IMG/VR virus record: IMGVR_UViG_3300034107_000725
Coordinates: 32,001-96,000 of that record
Reading direction: 5' to 3' (one strand)
Length of the DNA stretch: 64,000 bases
Origin: a virus
Shown here: positions 31,909 through 62,199 of the stretch, piece by piece
Numbering within the stretch: position 1 is the stretch's first letter
Layout: every line of letters starts with the position of its first letter
Translations under genes and position numbers: made by a program
The notes under the pieces: generated by a model
What the model saw: the letters and a program-made list of their open reading frames with translations, nothing else
Databases searched by the model: none
Told to the model about the DNA's origin: nothing

Positions 31909-32040
31909 AGAGTCGCGTGCGGGTAGGAACCGCAACCTAGCTTTGTTTTGTATTTCAAAGCCAGGTCTTCATCAGCTCAATCACGTCAAGCACCTTCGTG
32001 ATAGTGTTGATGAAGAGGAGGTGCAAATCCTCCCGGCTCT
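31909..32040 (+). ncRNA. tRNA-like structured RNA with an oversized variable arm
   Basis: 7-bp acceptor-like stem AGAGTCG/CGGCTCT; arm TGCGG/CCGCA; arm GCTTTG/CAAAGC; long arm CTTCATCAGC/GTTGATGAAG plus ATCACG/CGTGAT; T-like arm GGAGG-TGCAAAT-CCTCC. Confidence 0.55.
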
Positions 32041-54473: not shown

Positions 54474-55187
54474 ATGGGACTGAACCTCGAGCTTCTTAAA
54501 CAAGCCCGATATAACGTACGGGAGCTGGAAAAATCAGCATTTGTAGCTGCCGGTGACCCGTCAATGGGTGGAGATCCTGCGGCTATGGCTGGTGGCGGTG
54601 CTCCTCCTATGGACCCAGCTATGGCTGGCGGTGCCCCTCCAATGGATCCGGCGATGGCTGGCGGTGCCCCTCCAATGGATCCGGCGATGGCGGGTGGTGC
54701 TCCTCCTATGGATCCGGCGATGGCTGGCGGCGGCGATCCAATGGCTGCAATCATGCCGATGATTCAGCAAGCGGTACAGCAAGCAATGGCAGCCAACGGT
54801 GGCGGCGGTAGTGGTCCACAAGCAGGCGGGCCCGGAATCAAACCCAAGATCGACGTCAACGTCGAAATCATGCAGATGAAGAAGATGTTGGCCAAGATGA
54901 TGGACGCCATGGGAATCCACATGCCCGTAGCCGACATGGTGGCCACACCAGAAGATCTCAATCAGATTGCACAAGGTGGAGCCGGTTTCGCCGCAGCTAC
55001 GCCTGATAACGGTGGCGGACTGGGAGCCATCAAGCCGATACAGGCTATGAAGGCCGCAGAAGACTGGGAAAGCGGTGTAGCCTTTACACCTCCTTCCGAG
55101 AATTCATTCCAGCAGTCACACAACGTCACAAGAAGTACGGCAAACATGGCAACAGCGTTATTGCTGCGTAACCGTATGACGGGTTGA
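54474..55187 (+). CDS. Low-complexity Met/Gly/Pro/Ala protein with tandem repeats
   Basis: AAGGAG RBS; KQA, KSA, KAA; MDPAMAGGAPP repeats. Confidence 0.7.
   Translation: MGLNLELLKQARYNVRELEKSAFVAAGDPSMGGDPAAMAGGGAPPMDPAMAGGAPPMDPAMAGGAPPMDPAMAGGAPPMDPAMAGGGDPMAAIMPMIQQAVQQAMAANGGGGSGPQAGGPGIKPKIDVNVEIMQMKKMLAKMMDAMGIHMPVADMVATPEDLNQIAQGGAGFAAATPDNGGGLGAIKPIQAMKAAEDWESGVAFTPPSENSFQQSHNVTRSTANMATALLLRNRMTG
54609..54740 (+). repeat. Coding tandem repeat, 4 x 33 bp (MDPAMAGGAPP)
   Basis: Units start at 54609, 54642, 54675 and 54708, differing mostly at third codon positions. Confidence 0.9.
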
Positions 55188-56152: not shown

Positions 56153-59100
56153 ATGCTGAATACGACTGTCGGCCAACTGTTGGTAAACGAATCACTGCCT
56201 GAAGACTTGCGGGACTATAACCGAGTCCTGGACAAGAAAGGTATGGGTGCGTTGTTACAGCAGGTGGCTCGACAGTATCCAGAAAAGTACCGTGAAGTGT
56301 CGTTTCAGCTGAGTCAGGTTGGGCAGAGGTCAGCTCAAGACCAGGGGGGTATGTCGTTCGGCATGCGTCACCTGAAACGAAGTAAGATCGCCAACGAAAC
56401 TCGGAAACGGATTCAGGGGCAGCTAGACAACATCTTGTCTGATGACTCGCTCACAGATCAGCAACGCAACGATCTGATTGTGAAAACAGTTGGACGTGAG
56501 AGCGAACCGCAGCAGAAGGCAGTGCTGGAAGAAGCCATTCAAGCCAAGAATCCGTTAGCAATGCAAGTGCTTTCAGGTAGCCGCGGTAAGCCTATGAATC
56601 TTGCCAGCTTGCTGGCAGCAGATATGCTGTACTCGGACCACAGGGATGAGGTTATTCCAATTCCGGTGCTTCGCAGTTACAGCGAAGGCTTGTCCCCGGA
56701 AGAATACTGGGCTGGAACTTATGGTGCTCGTCGCGGGATCATCGCAACTAAGTTTGCCACTCAGGAAGCGGGATTTCTGAGCAAACAGTTAAATCAAGCA
56801 GGTCACCGGCTGGTCGTAATGGGTGAAGAGGGTGACGAAGATCCGGAAGCACCTACTCGGGGTTTGGTCGTTGATACTGACGACATGGACAACGAGGGTT
56901 CGCTTTTGGCTCGGGACGTAGGACCGTACAAGCGAAACACCCCACTTACCCCCAAGATTCTCAAACAACTACAGCGACTTGGCAAAAACCGGATTTTAGT
57001 CAGGTCGCCGATGGTTGGTGGTTCTCCTGAGGGTGGTGTTTATGCTCGAGACGTTGGTATCCGTGAACACGGTACCTTGGCAGGGTTAGGCGAGCAGGTC
57101 GGACTTCAGGCAGCTCAGGCTTTGTCTGAACCGATTAGCCAAGGGCAGCTTTCGGCAAAGCACTCTGGCGGCGTTGCCGGGCAGGAAAAGGCGGTTGGTG
57201 GATTCCAATACATCAATCAGCTGATTCAAACGCCCAAGAAGATGCAGGGTGGAGCTGCTCACTCTACATTGGACGGTACGGTGCAGCGAGTAGAACCTGC
57301 TGCTGCCGGTGGGTTCAACGTAACGATTGACGGCAAGCCGCACTATGTAGGTGAGGGCTTTGGTGTCAAAGTTAAAAAAGGGGATAACGTCGAAGCCGGG
57401 GATGTGCTTAGCGACGGTATTCCCAATCCAGCGGTCATCACTCAGTACAAAGGTGTTGGTGAGGGTCGCCGTTACTTTGTCAACGAATTCCGCAAAGCTA
57501 TGTCAGCTAGCGGTATGCAGGGACACCGCCGCAACATTGAGTTGCTGGCACGCGGATTAATCAATCACGTTAAGCTCACGGAAGAGACTGACGATCATGC
57601 TCCGGACGATATCGTCCCGTATTCTACGTTGGAGCATACATACAAGCCACGGGAAGGCCATGAGCGTCTAACGCCCAAAAAAGCGTTGGGCCAGTATCTG
57701 GAACGTCCGGTGTTGCACTACACCATTGGCACTAAGATTCGCCCGTCGATGCTTAGAGACTTCGATGATTTCGGAGTCCAGGCAATCCCGGTGCATAAGA
57801 ATCCGCCACCGTTCGAGCCACATATGGTACGAGGTATGTACCAAATGCAGCACGATCCGGATTGGATGACCCAGATGTACGGTTCCGGACTCAAAAAGAG
57901 TCTGCTGGAATCCACAGCACGTGGAGCAACCAGCGAGGAACGGGGTACCAGCTTCATCCCCAGCTTGGCGTCAGGCACTGATTTTGGCGAAGTCCCAGAT
58001 CGTGCAGTGATTCAGCCTAAGCCTGCATATTCATTGCCTAAAGTATCCATTCCTGACTTGGAGCCTGAAAATTCAGGATCCACGTTCTTTGGAGGCCGAT
58101 ACAAAGTAGGCATGCAAAAAAGGGCGGTAGAAGCGACCCCACCCAAAGTCGAGGCTCCGGCCTCCACATCTATGTCGGCTCCTACCGCCCCTACTCCCTC
58201 CCCGTCGAATGCCGCAGAGTTGGGTAGCAATAATATTATGTCCCCGGCTACAACTGTCCAGCCCAAACTGGATACAGTGACTCAGCCGATTCAACCGCCA
58301 GCGGATATACCACAGGCAAGCCAGACTCCTAGAGCAAGCCAGACTCCTCCAGCCAGTCAACCGCCGCCAGCCAGTACACCAGCACAGGTTCGGGCAGATG
58401 TGATGCAGGCTTCAAGAACCGCAACTCCGCCTCCGATTCAAGAACCTTTGCCGCAGATTAAAAGACCGTCAACTAAGATGCCAGAGCTATCTACTGGAAC
58501 CGCATCCACTTCTCGGCTAACCAGTTCTCGGCTAGGCTCACAAACAGCAGGCATTCCATGGTGGCGGGCAACAGCAAAGCCGACAGACACGACATGGAAT
58601 AAAACAGAAAATACCGAATTCCATTCTCAGCCTAACTCTGTGTTAGGTGCGACACCGTCTGTGGCCAACCTGGCTGCGAGTCGTTCCTACGCACCAGAGC
58701 CTCCAGCTGCACCTGTAAAGGGTTATGCAGATTATGCTCAAGACGCCTGGGACGCGTTTAAAAACCCTGTAACAACGATTAGTAATCAACTCTACGGTAC
58801 GCCGGAACCTACTGCGGGTAACTCGTTTTCCGATGATGGAAATCTGTTGGCTCGCTCTGGGGTAAATATGGGTCTTAAACAAATGATGGGCCGCTCTGCC
58901 CCGGCTGCGATTACTGCAGCAGCTGAAGCTGCAGTTCCATTGTCTCGGGTGGGTCGATTGGCAGCCGGAGCTCGAGCTTTGTTGCCGGGGTTTTTACCTG
59001 GGGCCAGACTGGCAGCCGGAGGTGCCGCAAGTGCTGCGGGTGGTCTATCTTTGGCACCGGCAGCGATAGGCTTTGCTGCGGTTAACGCAGGCACTGAGCT

Positions 59101-59335
59101 GCTTGACGCAGGCGGTCTTTTGCCAGAATGGGCGGGTGGAGATGGTTGGGGTACTATGGGCTGGGATCAAACTGGCTTCGAAAACGACTTTAAAGATCGG
59201 AGTATACCGGGGGCTGCCTTACATACCGTTATGAACCCACTTAAAAGCATATGGGCTGGCGGTACACGACTAGGTGATGCAGGTTATAGGGGAACGAGCT
59301 GGCTGTACGACAAGTTTAGAGGCGGGGCAAAATAG
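56153..59335 (+). CDS. RNA polymerase beta' C-terminal half with a ~400-aa non-RNAP extension
   Basis: TTVGQ, SGSRG, bridge helix TYGARRGIIATKFATQEAGFLSKQL, trigger loop AAQALSEPISQGQLSAKHSGG, GDVLSDG; then a P/S/T-rich linker and Gly/Ala hydrophobic tail. Confidence 0.9.
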   Translation: MLNTTVGQLLVNESLPEDLRDYNRVLDKKGMGALLQQVARQYPEKYREVSFQLSQVGQRSAQDQGGMSFGMRHLKRSKIANETRKRIQGQLDNILSDDSLTDQQRNDLIVKTVGRESEPQQKAVLEEAIQAKNPLAMQVLSGSRGKPMNLASLLAADMLYSDHRDEVIPIPVLRSYSEGLSPEEYWAGTYGARRGIIATKFATQEAGFLSKQLNQAGHRLVVMGEEGDEDPEAPTRGLVVDTDDMDNEGSLLARDVGPYKRNTPLTPKILKQLQRLGKNRILVRSPMVGGSPEGGVYARDVGIREHGTLAGLGEQVGLQAAQALSEPISQGQLSAKHSGGVAGQEKAVGGFQYINQLIQTPKKMQGGAAHSTLDGTVQRVEPAAAGGFNVTIDGKPHYVGEGFGVKVKKGDNVEAGDVLSDGIPNPAVITQYKGVGEGRRYFVNEFRKAMSASGMQGHRRNIELLARGLINHVKLTEETDDHAPDDIVPYSTLEHTYKPREGHERLTPKKALGQYLERPVLHYTIGTKIRPSMLRDFDDFGVQAIPVHKNPPPFEPHMVRGMYQMQHDPDWMTQMYGSGLKKSLLESTARGATSEERGTSFIPSLASGTDFGEVPDRAVIQPKPAYSLPKVSIPDLEPENSGSTFFGGRYKVGMQKRAVEATPPKVEAPASTSMSAPTAPTPSPSNAAELGSNNIMSPATTVQPKLDTVTQPIQPPADIPQASQTPRASQTPPASQPPPASTPAQVRADVMQASRTATPPPIQEPLPQIKRPSTKMPELSTGTASTSRLTSSRLGSQTAGIPWWRATAKPTDTTWNKTENTEFHSQPNSVLGATPSVANLAASRSYAPEPPAAPVKGYADYAQDAWDAFKNPVTTISNQLYGTPEPTAGNSFSDDGNLLARSGVNMGLKQMMGRSAPAAITAAAEAAVPLSRVGRLAAGARALLPGFLPGARLAAGGAASAAGGLSLAPAAIGFAAVNAGTELLDAGGLLPEWAGGDGWGTMGWDQTGFENDFKDRSIPGAALHTVMNPLKSIWAGGTRLGDAGYRGTSWLYDKFRGGAK

Positions 59336-59416
59336 TGTTTGGGTTGCGATGTTAGCCCACGTCGGGCTAAACTGAGTTATCCATCTATCTCTTTTTGTAA
59401 AATCCAGGTGATCAGG

Positions 59417-59641
59417 ATGTTCAACGGAATAATGCTTGGCGGTATCAGCGAGAAGTATGCGGGTGCTTACCTCTTGCCTCCAGCCAAACGGAAGAAGAAA
59501 AAGCCACAACCCGATGAAGTTGATCCAGAAGTGCTGGATAAAGTGGCATCTGCCGTTGTGCGTAATCAACAGGCTATCATGCAACAACAACTGGCGGCAG
59601 GCGACCTGGGCGGCGGCTGGAATCCATACGACCAAGTCTAA
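59417..59641 (+). CDS. Small hypothetical protein
   Basis: AGGA RBS before ATG 59417; KYA and KVA motifs. Confidence 0.55.
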   Translation: MFNGIMLGGISEKYAGAYLLPPAKRKKKKPQPDEVDPEVLDKVASAVVRNQQAIMQQQLAAGDLGGGWNPYDQV

Positions 59642-59691
59642 GCCAACATCACTTCTCTGGAACTGACGAGCTGTTGCTCACGGAAGGGACC

Positions 59692-62199
59692 ATGCAAACA
59701 CAACTGAATAAGACAGCCGCCCTCGGCGGCAGCGGCGGCGAAACCGAATTTGAACAGGCTTTTTCTAGCCTGGCCTATGCCTATCTACGGGATAAAGCCC
59801 CACGGTTGCTAGATTTCATGGTCGGTTTTCAACTAGTCGACCGCAATGAAGATAACACCAAAGCGATGGGTATCTTCGGATTTCAAGTTGGCAAGCAGTG
59901 GCTATATGCCCCAGTGTTCTTCTTAAACGGCGATCTCAAAGGTCACGAGTTGCTCTACATGAAGAACAACGACTCCTTTGTGCCGCTGAAGGAAAACTGG
60001 ATTAACTACATTATGAGCCGCAAGCCCCACATCTTGGGCGAGCAATCTGCCTCAAAGTTGCGAGAGCTTGGTGGCGTTTATCCGGATATCCGGACGCTTT
60101 CAATCCCACCTTCAATTGGTGGTGGCAAGCGTGCCAGTGATAACAGCTGGCTTCAAGGCGTGATGCCGATGCTGGCTGCTTTCAAAACCAAAGCGGCTAG
60201 CTCACTCTATCGTGGAGCAGGGAACCGCAAGCTCAATCAAGCTGCTGTAGTTGCCGATCCGTTCGGTGCCGCTTTGGCAAAGCAGGCTTCAATTCTGGAT
60301 TTTAACAACGTCATGCCACAGAGTCTGGAACTGATCAAGATGGCTCACGCTATCTCTGAACGGTACCCGACAATCAAACTGGCGATGCAGAAGTTCTACG
60401 GTGTAGACTGCTTCTCACGCTGGAGCAAAGACCTGCGTAACAACCTGGAGAAGGAAGCCAGCAACATTCTGCCCGTGCAGATTGCGGCCAAACCTTATAT
60501 GCCGGGCAATTTGTTGATCCCAACAGAACGACCAGCCGGACCAATCGATCACGTCAAGCAGGGCAAACTCAATCTGGATGCTCCAGAATACGTGTTTGAA
60601 CGTGGTGGATTTATTGTCGATACGCTTGATGTCAGATTCCAGGTTGAACGGGAATCTGCCGGTATTACAGACAGTCGTGCCGACGACGAAGTATCGAAGG
60701 CTTACAACACTCAAGTTGACGTGCGGATGACCAATCCAACCGAAACCAACTTGTACCGTGTGCTGGAACGTCCAGGCAAGTTCAGCAAGATGCTGGTTGT
60801 GATGCACGGCAGCAGCAACCGTGGACGAGAACCATTTGCCACGTTGGTACGACTGGAAGACAACGGCGACGGTGGTGATAAGGCCTGGCTCAACAGCCAT
60901 GCCACCAACATCTTTGCCGATCAGACCGCGGAACGCGATGAGTGGCGGGAATGGTTTGAAAGCCTGCCAGGCTCGGAATCGTTGCAAGACGGCGGTGAAT
61001 ACATCGCAGTTTCCGAGGATGGCTCGGGTACTGTGCCGTTCCATGTGCAGTCTAACTACGGCGACGGACGTCACCGTGTGGACTTCCGCACTCACGTCAA
61101 CTTCGACGAAGCTCGGCCCAGCACGATGCCTCGTTTGCAGAAGATCACCGATCCGTTTACGGAGGAAGGTTATCACATGCCGAGCACGTACGGTGCCATG
61201 CTGTACACCGATAAAGAGGGCAAGAAAGGTACACGGCTGCGAGCAATTGCCGGTGAGCTTCGCGTGCCTGACTCTTTCAAGTTCCTTAAGCTATCGGAAC
61301 CGCAAAAGCCCAGATCTGGCGAATTGATGCCTTGCTCCAATTACAACAGCCGCAGCGACATGCCGCCGATTCAGCTTGGTAAGATCGACGACATCCAGCT
61401 CTTCTTCTACGAAAAGACGGCTGGGTTGCAGTTGTTAAACAACAGCACAGACGTCTACATTGACTCGGTGCTGGGTTCAGAGCGGGTCAGTCTTAAAGAA
61501 GCCGCGTGGCATCTGGTAAGCGTGCATGGTCTTCGCGAGAAGGCAGCTCGTGAGCTGCTGGAACAGTCAGAACGTAAGGGCAAAACCAGTTACCGGATCG
61601 AGTATGCTCCGGGTTACGGCAATCAAAAGCAGGCTGGACCAAACGACAGCGTGCTGGCTGGCGGCCCAGATGCCCCAATCTTTGACGACTTTGCTGAAGA
61701 GCGAAGTGTTGAAAACTACGGGCCTCGTACTTCTGCTCCAACTCAGTACGGCGGTGAAGCTGCTTACCGTTTGAACCACTTGAGTGCAGATCAAACTGAC
61801 CCAGGTGTATGGAACCCATGGCAGAACTACGAAGCAGAAGACTTCCAGAAGAATGTACAGAAAGCTCAACAGGCTGGAGCACAGGGACAGAAGGAAGTCT
61901 TTGATACTTCGATGATCTCCGGTATGCTCAAGTCCGTTCGGCAGGATTCGCTGGTTGAACGTCACCTGGCTCCGCTGGTTGAATCTTTAGACGCCTTAGG
62001 CCGCCTGTTGATGAACTTCTACTGGCACGGCGAAGAGTTTGAAGATCGCTATGGTAAAAGCGATATGCCTGAGCTGGAAGATAGCCTTCGAAATTCCTTC
62101 GAGGCCTTGGGTGATGTTACGCTCTTCCTGAAAGAGAAAACTGTCGAATCGCCGTTTGATAGCGGTGATGTCAATCTCGAAGAAACTTCAAGGAACTAA
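59692..62199 (+). CDS. Large putative virion protein with periodic K-x-A motifs
   Basis: KTA near the N-terminus, then KAA, KQA, KEA, KTA, KQA; conserved-looking N-domain (GFQLVD...PVFFLNG). Confidence 0.7.
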   Translation: MQTQLNKTAALGGSGGETEFEQAFSSLAYAYLRDKAPRLLDFMVGFQLVDRNEDNTKAMGIFGFQVGKQWLYAPVFFLNGDLKGHELLYMKNNDSFVPLKENWINYIMSRKPHILGEQSASKLRELGGVYPDIRTLSIPPSIGGGKRASDNSWLQGVMPMLAAFKTKAASSLYRGAGNRKLNQAAVVADPFGAALAKQASILDFNNVMPQSLELIKMAHAISERYPTIKLAMQKFYGVDCFSRWSKDLRNNLEKEASNILPVQIAAKPYMPGNLLIPTERPAGPIDHVKQGKLNLDAPEYVFERGGFIVDTLDVRFQVERESAGITDSRADDEVSKAYNTQVDVRMTNPTETNLYRVLERPGKFSKMLVVMHGSSNRGREPFATLVRLEDNGDGGDKAWLNSHATNIFADQTAERDEWREWFESLPGSESLQDGGEYIAVSEDGSGTVPFHVQSNYGDGRHRVDFRTHVNFDEARPSTMPRLQKITDPFTEEGYHMPSTYGAMLYTDKEGKKGTRLRAIAGELRVPDSFKFLKLSEPQKPRSGELMPCSNYNSRSDMPPIQLGKIDDIQLFFYEKTAGLQLLNNSTDVYIDSVLGSERVSLKEAAWHLVSVHGLREKAARELLEQSERKGKTSYRIEYAPGYGNQKQAGPNDSVLAGGPDAPIFDDFAEERSVENYGPRTSAPTQYGGEAAYRLNHLSADQTDPGVWNPWQNYEAEDFQKNVQKAQQAGAQGQKEVFDTSMISGMLKSVRQDSLVERHLAPLVESLDALGRLLMNFYWHGEEFEDRYGKSDMPELEDSLRNSFEALGDVTLFLKEKTVESPFDSGDVNLEETSRN

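Follow-up and report, generated by a model that had tools for sequence, protein, structure and literature searches.

An RNA polymerase subunit with a putative cleavable cargo tail in an uncultured lake-water phage

Why does a subunit of a phage RNA polymerase (RNAP) end in a tail of ∼400 amino acids (aa) that lies outside the polymerase? The question is raised by the open reading frame (ORF) 56153..59335 on the + strand of a 64,000-nucleotide (nt) window, the whole stretch of DNA analyzed here (positions 32,001 to 96,000 of IMG/VR record IMGVR_UViG_3300034107_000725). The genome is that of an uncultured lake-water phage (193,990 bp), and the + strand holds nearly all genes of the window. The ORF is open for 1060 aa, with the C-terminal half of a beta' subunit (beta'C) as its core and the tail behind it. 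On balance, we favor reading its product as a capsid-cargo polyprotein that would be cut at a Lys-Arg-Ala site (K-R-A) by a head protease. We observe the fusion itself, split and tail-less forms of it among relatives, conservation of a motif at the joint, enrichment of that motif in the head genes, and a modular build of the tails.

The identity of the core is clear. It is the C-terminal half of a bacterial-type beta' subunit, with a Pfam match to PF04998 (RNA_pol_Rpb1_5) at aa 179-360 (E 5.5e-20) and with solved bacterial beta' chains aligning to aa 2-492 (phmmer, E 3e-34). The closest cultured beta'C homologs, from Vibrio phage D181 and Salmonella phage Arash, have 25-30% identity. Tail-less homologs (620-665 aa) share the sequence up to ...SGTDFG...FFGGRYKVG (aa 606-653) and then terminate, which agrees with an initial annotation of this DNA that had RNAP homology ending near SGTDFG; the conserved FFGGRYKVG (58085-58111) closes the core. 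No RNAP family match was found past aa 492-653, that is, in the tail (aa 654-1060). A polymerase-fold part was considered for the tail and ruled out: homologs end before it, loci L024-L031 and L059 encode it as a gene of its own, and a related genome, G001, lacks it. The phage has one multisubunit RNAP set (Rpb2_6 matches just once across the 193,990 bp), and the RNAP genes are embedded in a head-structural block. The order, all co-oriented, is beta-beta'N, two small ORFs, beta'C-tail, and then, by synteny, the counterparts of Arash gp218-gp222.

We then considered whether the fusion is real. A search of 5.8 billion proteins gave a large metagenomic family, of which we classified 156 members as fused (tail of at least 150 aa; 88 members), split-type (ending right behind the FFGG motif; 25), or short in other ways (43). 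The nearest homologs, whose cores are 98-99% identical, have the identical single-ORF layout. At least 97% of the sampled words of the stretch were present in 16 lake-water runs, 15 of which are flagged as possible sources of the DNA, and a contig from the sole unflagged run covers 57600-58319, including the joint, with 0 differences and 0 indels. A missed stop, a frameshift, or a chimera of beta'C with the next gene has one point in its favor: at the joint, only a short indel (11 nt, in the region of the stop codon) sets split relatives apart from the window, so a small sequencing error could in principle mimic a fusion. Against it stand the 88 diverse fused homologs from many samples, the 16 runs (15 possibly the source), and the contig that bridges the joint. 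We regard an artifact of this kind as very improbable; a missed stop or a frameshift, on which the initial annotation would have given up its claim of a ∼400-aa tail, is excluded, and the claim stands.

The split relatives show where the tail begins. In the marine loci L024-L031 (core ∼78% identical), beta'C ends ...FFGGKFNVGxK and is followed by a stop, a gap of 2-4 nt, and an ORF starting MDKQAVE (for example ...VGAK, TAG, CC, ATG, MDKQAVE); in L059, the two genes of the split pair overlap as ATGA. In the window, the joint reads FFGGRYKVG-M-Q-K-R-A-V-E-A, with the ATG of M654 at position 58112. In the alignment, VG-MQKRAVE pairs with VGAK-stop-MDKQAVE, the difference at the DNA level being a short indel, which places M654 where the separate gene has its start codon. 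A C-terminal Lys is found in 20 of the 25 split-type beta'C proteins. The separate downstream ORFs of these loci (254-842 aa) have the same build as fused tails: a long disordered linker, a module (Gly/Ala-rich helix, the Trp/Gly-rich LLPEWAGGDGxGNxGWDQ, and NPLK), and a C-terminal coiled coil of ∼210 aa, the last of which is missing from the window's shorter tail.

Other relatives have no tail at all. G001, a complete 204,794-bp genome with terminal repeats and a core 77-80% identical to the window core, encodes a 654-aa beta'C with the next head gene directly behind it, and a profile of the tail found nothing in this complete genome and one match each in two positive-control genomes. The tail is also absent from more distant clades and from Arash (beta'C of 606 aa) and D181 (609 aa). 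Scans of viral, genome, and metagenome data returned no locus of the clade with a 629-633-aa beta'C (P0090-P0117). The tail is thus a protein in its own right, joined to beta'C in the window phage and dispensable in some relatives. Given the split forms, the tail-less complete genome, and Arash and D181, it does not belong to the enzyme and is not required to package the polymerase. These forms rule out a tail that RNAP packaging requires, and they leave the initial annotation's idea of a tether for the polymerase unsupported. As for conservation in homologs, a check that the initial annotation had called for, the tail is kept as a fusion in 88 of the 156 members, is split off or absent in others, and evolves fast.

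This fast evolution is seen within the window's own subclade, in which tails are 67-74% identical and cores 98-99% identical among nearest relatives; the tails of deep clades have no homology to each other. A FastTree phylogeny of the cores, rooted on tail-less outgroups, implies at least eight state changes, with fused lineages basal and split clades nested among fused ones. Whether fusion or fission came first is not settled by the core tree, the deep tails being mutually nonhomologous. Two mosaic cases were also noted. Member P0005 is identical to the window across the first 87 tail residues and 47% identical beyond, and the window module is 56% identical to a tail fragment, P0123, which is 61-75% identical to the tails of L002/L003, phages whose core is ∼70% identical to short-form family members. 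This sequence mosaic suggests recombinational swapping of tail modules.

The joint itself carries a conserved motif, Lys-x-Ala (K-x-A). In a scan of 400 gapped dipeptides, 35 of 40 distinct 55-aa junction windows had K-x-A (16.1 expected, z 6.4), and only patterns belonging to the conserved FFGG motif ranked above it. A second window definition gave K-x-A in 30 of 33 junction-distinct 70-aa windows (16.4 expected). Per 100 aa, the joint has 1.99 K-x-A and the remaining tail sequence 0.19, ∼10 times less, and in the fused forms the sequence behind the core varies freely while K-x-A is almost always retained.

The same motif is enriched in the head genes that follow. Pooled over six downstream head-cluster proteins, K-x-A occurs 69 times against 19.1 expected (z 12.9), the top of 400 gapped dipeptides, the runner-up having z 3.8. 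Gene by gene against shuffles, the enrichment is confined to the block just downstream, with z 4.3 for an 841-aa protein (11 K-x-A vs. 3.5 expected), 6.1 for a 461-aa, 7.4 for a 494-aa, 6.6 for a scaffold-like 445-aa, and 4.2 for a 146-aa protein; the RNAP ORFs are at expectation (beta-beta'N, 9 observed vs. 8.6). Arash, Vibrio D181, and distant metagenomic clades show the enrichment in their orthologous head genes as well, and K-x-A positions are conserved among orthologs of the 841-aa protein. The extended logo of the head genes is (L/F)-E-K-x-A-(A/S)-(A/D). Herpesvirus assemblins, which share the fold of the T4 protease gp21, cut after Ala, between the last two residues of (V/L/I)-x-A-S, and by analogy the small residue behind Ala in the logo would fit a cut after Ala. 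The motif at the presumed processing point is thus also over-represented in scaffold/core proteins, a pattern known from T4 and SPN3US (PMC10052503). The initial annotation's idea that the tail is removed at K-R-A gains indirect support from the K-x-A kept at the joint, its enrichment in the head genes, and a split break that falls exactly here; the cut itself we infer. As a separate observation, FEKLAS and LEKQAI both lie in the N-terminal 35 residues of a 315-aa ORF beyond the window that resembles a major capsid protein (genome 102422-103369), which would fit a short N-terminal propeptide removed at K-x-A.

Which enzyme might cut there? A 494-aa ORF 7 kb downstream (genome 98409-99893), with an invariant His/Ser, is homologous to gp222, a structural protein of Arash (hhalign probability 99.8%). 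In its AlphaFold model, aa 55-176 gave weak, though mutually consistent, fold matches to T4 gp21 (5jbl; Z 4.5, root-mean-square deviation 4.4, 109 aligned) and to varicella-zoster virus protease (Z 4.4), and every protease or phage protein among the matches to this region is a capsid protease. Foldseek named human cytomegalovirus protease at a probability of 0.2-0.3 and had nothing at E <= 0.001. A search of the whole genome with PF03420 and a Protein Data Bank sequence search for a prohead protease gave no match, and the Atlas returned S77/S78 clusters for this ORF only at 0.89. The fold model gives a weak hint that the 494-aa ORF is a candidate head protease of the gp21/assemblin fold.

A second linker motif, [DNS][IVL][ML]P (N-I-M-P for short), is present in 65 of the 88 fused tails, mostly 35-55 aa past the core end, the window version being NNIMSP; its density per 100 aa is 0.19 in tails versus 0.03 in cores. 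It occurs beside K-x-A in the tails of other lineages; tail-bearing clades also have it next to K-x-A in their 841-aa head protein, and tail-less clades do not. Some of those other tails carry enzymes. In the P0087 tail, an InPase pyrophosphatase (PF18823, E 4e-57) separates the joint from the usual module, and the L067 tail has, by Pfam, an acylphosphatase, a P-loop kinase, and DUF5661. Each enzyme module is bracketed by K-x-A, often paired with D/N-I-L/M-P, as in KVA-NDDILP...KFA and KKA-KDEDNIMP-ILT-KHA. InPase is a domain of phage polyvalent proteins, which are predicted to be virion-packaged (PMC5512222). The multidomain make-up of such proteins, a single chain with at least two effector or enzyme domains of unrelated kinds in a virion-gene context, is found in P0087 (InPase) and L067, unlike in the window tail, which has no recognizable domain.

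What, then, does the window tail contain? As the initial annotation had it, a P/S/T/Q-rich linker follows MQKRA and leads into a Gly/Ala-rich hydrophobic stretch: P+S+T+Q is 0.38-0.62 across aa 641-800, G+A is 0.50 across aa 921-1000, and there is one hydrophobic segment, a borderline one, at aa 954-980 (Kyte-Doolittle 1.53). In two alignments of the module (A1 and A2), the G, GW, and P columns are invariant, and an AlphaFold2 model of it from a 13-row alignment has helices only, with a predicted local distance difference test (pLDDT) score of 50. Pfam, PHROGs, and ESM Atlas had zero matches to the window tail and to the split gene, and resemblance to an ejection-protein family (such as T7 gp14-16 or P22 gp7/gp16/gp20) was looked for in PHROG, Pfam, and Atlas with empty results. 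Given these searches, the score of 50, and the single borderline segment, the earlier label "ejection-protein-like" survives as an analogy. The likeness to neighboring virion-type ORFs holds for the shared Gly/Ala-rich hydrophobic make-up and fails for homology: a profile of the module run against all ORFs of the genome matched the tail alone, which rules out the neighboring Gly-rich ORFs as its homologs. phmmer with the tail over the whole library gave six matches, all of them C-terminal pieces of beta'C tails and zero stand-alone genes. A word-index search of aa 870-1060 against shorter proteins gave no score, low-complexity words having probably swamped it, and complex prediction with four copies of the module gave no answer (score 0.02). 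A 260-nt freshwater metatranscriptome contig (58109-58368) is exactly the first 260 nt of the tail, starting 3 nt ahead of the M654 ATG; the contigs from RNA libraries, which may hold DNA and whose contigs cannot show RNA ends, are only those at 57678-57851, 58109-58368, and 59473-59700.

That the polymerase travels in the virion, as the initial annotation proposed, is supported by analogy. Like the window phage, Arash (gp216/gp206) and D181 (VPHD181_0271) have a split RNAP within the head-gene block and orthologous head genes enriched in K-x-A; unlike it, both have a beta'C without a tail, and in Arash a helicase gene lies directly downstream of beta'C. In LC-MS of purified Arash particles, gp206 (beta) and gp216 (beta') ranked first and fifth by spectrum count (PMC10585845); identity to the window protein is 25%. 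The place of the RNAP genes in the head block, the abundance of beta and beta' in Arash particles, and the presence of one RNAP set in the genome make it probable that the polymerase is packaged.

The nearest parallels to cargo loading are found in other phages. In T4, short targeting peptides with cleavage motifs load passengers into the prohead, gp21 then removes them, and the scaffold proteins are motif-rich. The T4 capsid targeting signal is N-terminal, ∼10 aa long, and cut after Glu; the protease motif of the phiKZ/SPN3US type likewise ends in Glu and not in Lys-x-Ala. Unlike in T4, the passenger in the window would ride on the C-terminus of a polymerase subunit, with K-x-A and N-I-M-P as its motifs. 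phiKZ and SPN3US resemble our proposal in that a multisubunit RNAP is packed in the head for ejection, and SPN3US further in that one protease (gp245, gp21-like) trims many head proteins at a short motif, with propeptides that hold several motif copies (PMC10052503). SPN3US differs in that 13 of its 14 mapped cuts remove N-terminal propeptides, the sole C-terminal cut being the protease's own, and no RNAP subunit is among the nine listed substrates of the protease nor is a polymerase-cargo polyprotein described (PMC10052503); the head genes of phiKZ and SPN3US have no detectable sequence relation to those of the window phage. Polyvalent proteins resemble this family in stringing together unrelated modules in genes that lie among those for virion proteins; they are predicted to enter the virion and to be injected, and InPase, seen in the P0087 tail, is one of their signature domains (PMC5512222). 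They are typically built on MuF- or portal-associated scaffolds and have their own metallopeptidase (PMC5512222), whereas here the scaffold is an RNAP subunit, and the window tail, unlike them, has no recognizable enzyme domain.

N4 offers a model for a tail that stays attached. Its gp50, like the window protein, combines a polymerase catalytic part with flexible linkers and large noncatalytic regions, which in N4 serve encapsidation, membrane association, and injection (PMC13492108). The tail in the window could similarly be a flexible C-terminal arm that anchors the polymerase in the head or at the portal, or that inserts into the host membrane at ejection. The N4 virion RNAP is packaged unprocessed with flexible linkers, its C-terminal domain being for encapsidation and its N-terminal domain for injection and membrane association (PMC13492108; PMC5512222); the window tail is a linker of ∼280 aa followed by a hydrophobic module, and the fused state is the commonest in the family (88 of 156). 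However, gp50 is a single-subunit, T7-like enzyme that is unprocessed and requires its flanks, whereas the window has a bacterial-type beta' half whose tail is dispensable in relatives and probably cut. The covalent link can be done without, since at least two clades have a separate tail and one complete genome, together with Arash and D181, has none. The joint also retains the head-gene motif K-x-A amid freely varying sequence, and the K-x-A brackets around each enzyme module elsewhere are hard to explain without cutting. We therefore consider an uncleaved arm unlikely. A partner that acts inside the cell, as an assembly or regulatory factor of the polymerase or as a membrane anchor at the site of DNA entry, would make the fusion a matter of translational coupling and K-x-A an inherited N-terminus. 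By Rosetta-stone logic, adjacent coupled genes that occur both fused and split suggest one function or complex; cleavage would be pointless at the split-form K-x-A, which sits at residues 3-5; and the Met ahead of the motif is often retained in fused forms, so that an internal start would be possible. Yet the tails of different clades are nonhomologous and some are unrelated enzymes, which interchangeable cargo fits better, and one complete genome whose core is 77-80% identical has no tail. The gene is also part of the head block, it shares its linker motifs with the 841-aa head protein, and the InPase module family has been described in proteins predicted to be virion-packaged. An intracellular partner thus seems to us improbable.

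The favored reading, a cargo polyprotein cut at K-R-A, meets several difficulties of its own. The residue behind the joint Ala is V, D, or E, and sites in head proteins favor A or S. In split forms, K-x-A makes up residues 3-5 of a protein that is already separate, so that cutting there would part nothing, and some of its conservation could accordingly be that of an inherited N-terminus; three to five junction types have no K-x-A. The assignment of the protease is weak, with a pLDDT of 44 for the 494-aa model and all of its fold matches at Z < 5. Pfam S77/S78 did not match the 494-aa protein, Pfam on 13 orthologs came back empty, and hhalign of the protein against T4 gp21 gave no match. The module of the tail has no confident fold and a borderline hydrophobicity, which makes a role in membranes speculative. 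Arash particles gave 116 proteins that include evident cytoplasmic enzymes, and the authors note possible carry-over (PMC10585845). Cleavage, packaging, the identity of the protease, and the function of the tail are all inferred.

As a cargo polyprotein, the ORF product would work as follows. The precursor would have two halves, the C-terminal half of beta' (aa 1 to ∼656) and a separate protein (aa ∼657-1060), which one chain would supply one-to-one and bring into the assembling head together, with the polymerase probably as virion cargo. A head maturation protease, likely the 494-aa homolog of Arash gp222, would cut at K656-R-A658. The cut would free a beta'C with a C-terminus like that of the naturally separate beta'C (...VGxK), and a tail protein whose disordered linker bears the docking-type motif N-I-M-P and whose helical module is hydrophobic and rich in Trp/Gly. 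Across the phage group, the beta'C C-terminus would be a loading site for variable cargo, which we consider more likely than a packaging role for the tail. The cargo would be the helical module in the window phage, maybe a membrane-active ejection helper, and pyrophosphatase, acylphosphatase, and kinase modules elsewhere. That the module assists membrane passage during ejection is a guess prompted by one hydrophobic helix and a Trp/Gly-rich stretch. A wider and distinctly more tentative version makes the beta'C C-terminus a general cargo dock: modules with K-x-A and N-I-M-P might ride into the prohead and be freed by a Lys-x-Ala protease, of which none is described in the literature searched, and the window's cargo might be a membrane-active helper for the crossing of the host envelope by polymerase and DNA.

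The features of the locus are collected in Table 1.

Table 1. The RNA polymerase genes, the tail, and their downstream neighbors in the window
Feature	Position	Strand	Basis
beta + beta'N fusion subunit, 1479 aa	50004..54443	+	Pfam Rpb2_6, Rpb2_3, Rpb1_1, Rpb1_2
beta'C core, aa 1-653	56153..58111	+	Pfam Rpb1_5; phmmer to solved beta' chains; end of tail-less/split homologs
Joint M654-Q-K656-R-A658, proposed head-protease site	58112..58126; K-x-A 58118-58126	+	M654 is the start-codon position of the split gene
Variable P/S/T/Q-rich linker, probably disordered, aa 659-936	58127..58960	+	Composition; N-N-I-M-S-P at 58229-58246
Conserved tail module, aa 937-1055	58961..59317	+	Profile match E 3e-42; module common to fused tails and the L059 split gene
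Module part: Gly/Ala-rich hydrophobic helix	59012-59092		
Module part: LLPEWAGGDGWGTMGWDQ	59117-59170		
Module part: NPLK			
Conserved small ORF between tail and 841-aa gene	59339..59641	+	90-102 aa ORFs at the same position in L001, L035, L039, L040
841-aa head-block protein	59674..62199	+	Synteny with Arash gp218 ("structural protein"); K-x-A-rich; two N-[IV]-[LM]-P motifs

The 841-aa head-block protein had zero Pfam and zero PHROG matches. Between the RNAP genes, a 237-aa ORF (54474-55187) holds 4.6 tandem copies of a 33-nt unit (54593-54744) that encodes PPMDPAMAGGA, and a similar repeat region, (M)DPAAMGG, is present in the scaffold-like 445-aa head protein (genome 99935-101272); BLASTP between the two gave 44% over 52 aa, with E 0.001 for a single comparison. 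Judged by sequence, these shared DPA-type repeats may be a link between the RNAP operon and the head scaffold. Distant tail-less clades (L011-L017) have extra ORFs of 497 or 1162 aa between beta-beta'N and beta'C, which are absent in the window's phage. Many beta'C cores of the family hold one or more inteins (LAGLIDADG_3, Hom_end_hint, Hint), as in P0009, P0067, P0074, P0076, P0083, P0084, L015, L016, and L070, with three LAGLIDADG_3 matches in a 2248-aa ORF of L016. The family contigs L070 and L069 were binned into metagenome-assembled genomes labeled Candidatus Nanopelagicales and Gemmataceae, which may be a hint to hosts or an artifact of binning.

Polyvalent cargo proteins are already known, as are packaged polymerases and processing by a head protease. 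Within the literature searched, a bacterial-type RNAP subunit that would carry a cleavable and interchangeable tail of cargo appears to be new, as do the K-x-A and N-I-M-P linker grammar and the natural series of fused, split, and absent forms. Packaged RNAPs allow transcription to start independently of the host RNAP, and little is known of how capsids take up a large enzyme of several subunits; at this locus, nature provides the same proteins in three genetic arrangements, namely fused, split, and tail-less. Since the motif at the joint is shared with head-assembly proteins of the cultured Arash and Vibrio D-phages, both a new head-protease specificity and a polymerase-borne loading route are directly testable. 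If the reading is true, K-x-A and N-I-M-P linkers would be a rule for polyprotein boundaries in a large and abundant group of uncultured aquatic phages and would offer a route for loading foreign proteins into such capsids.

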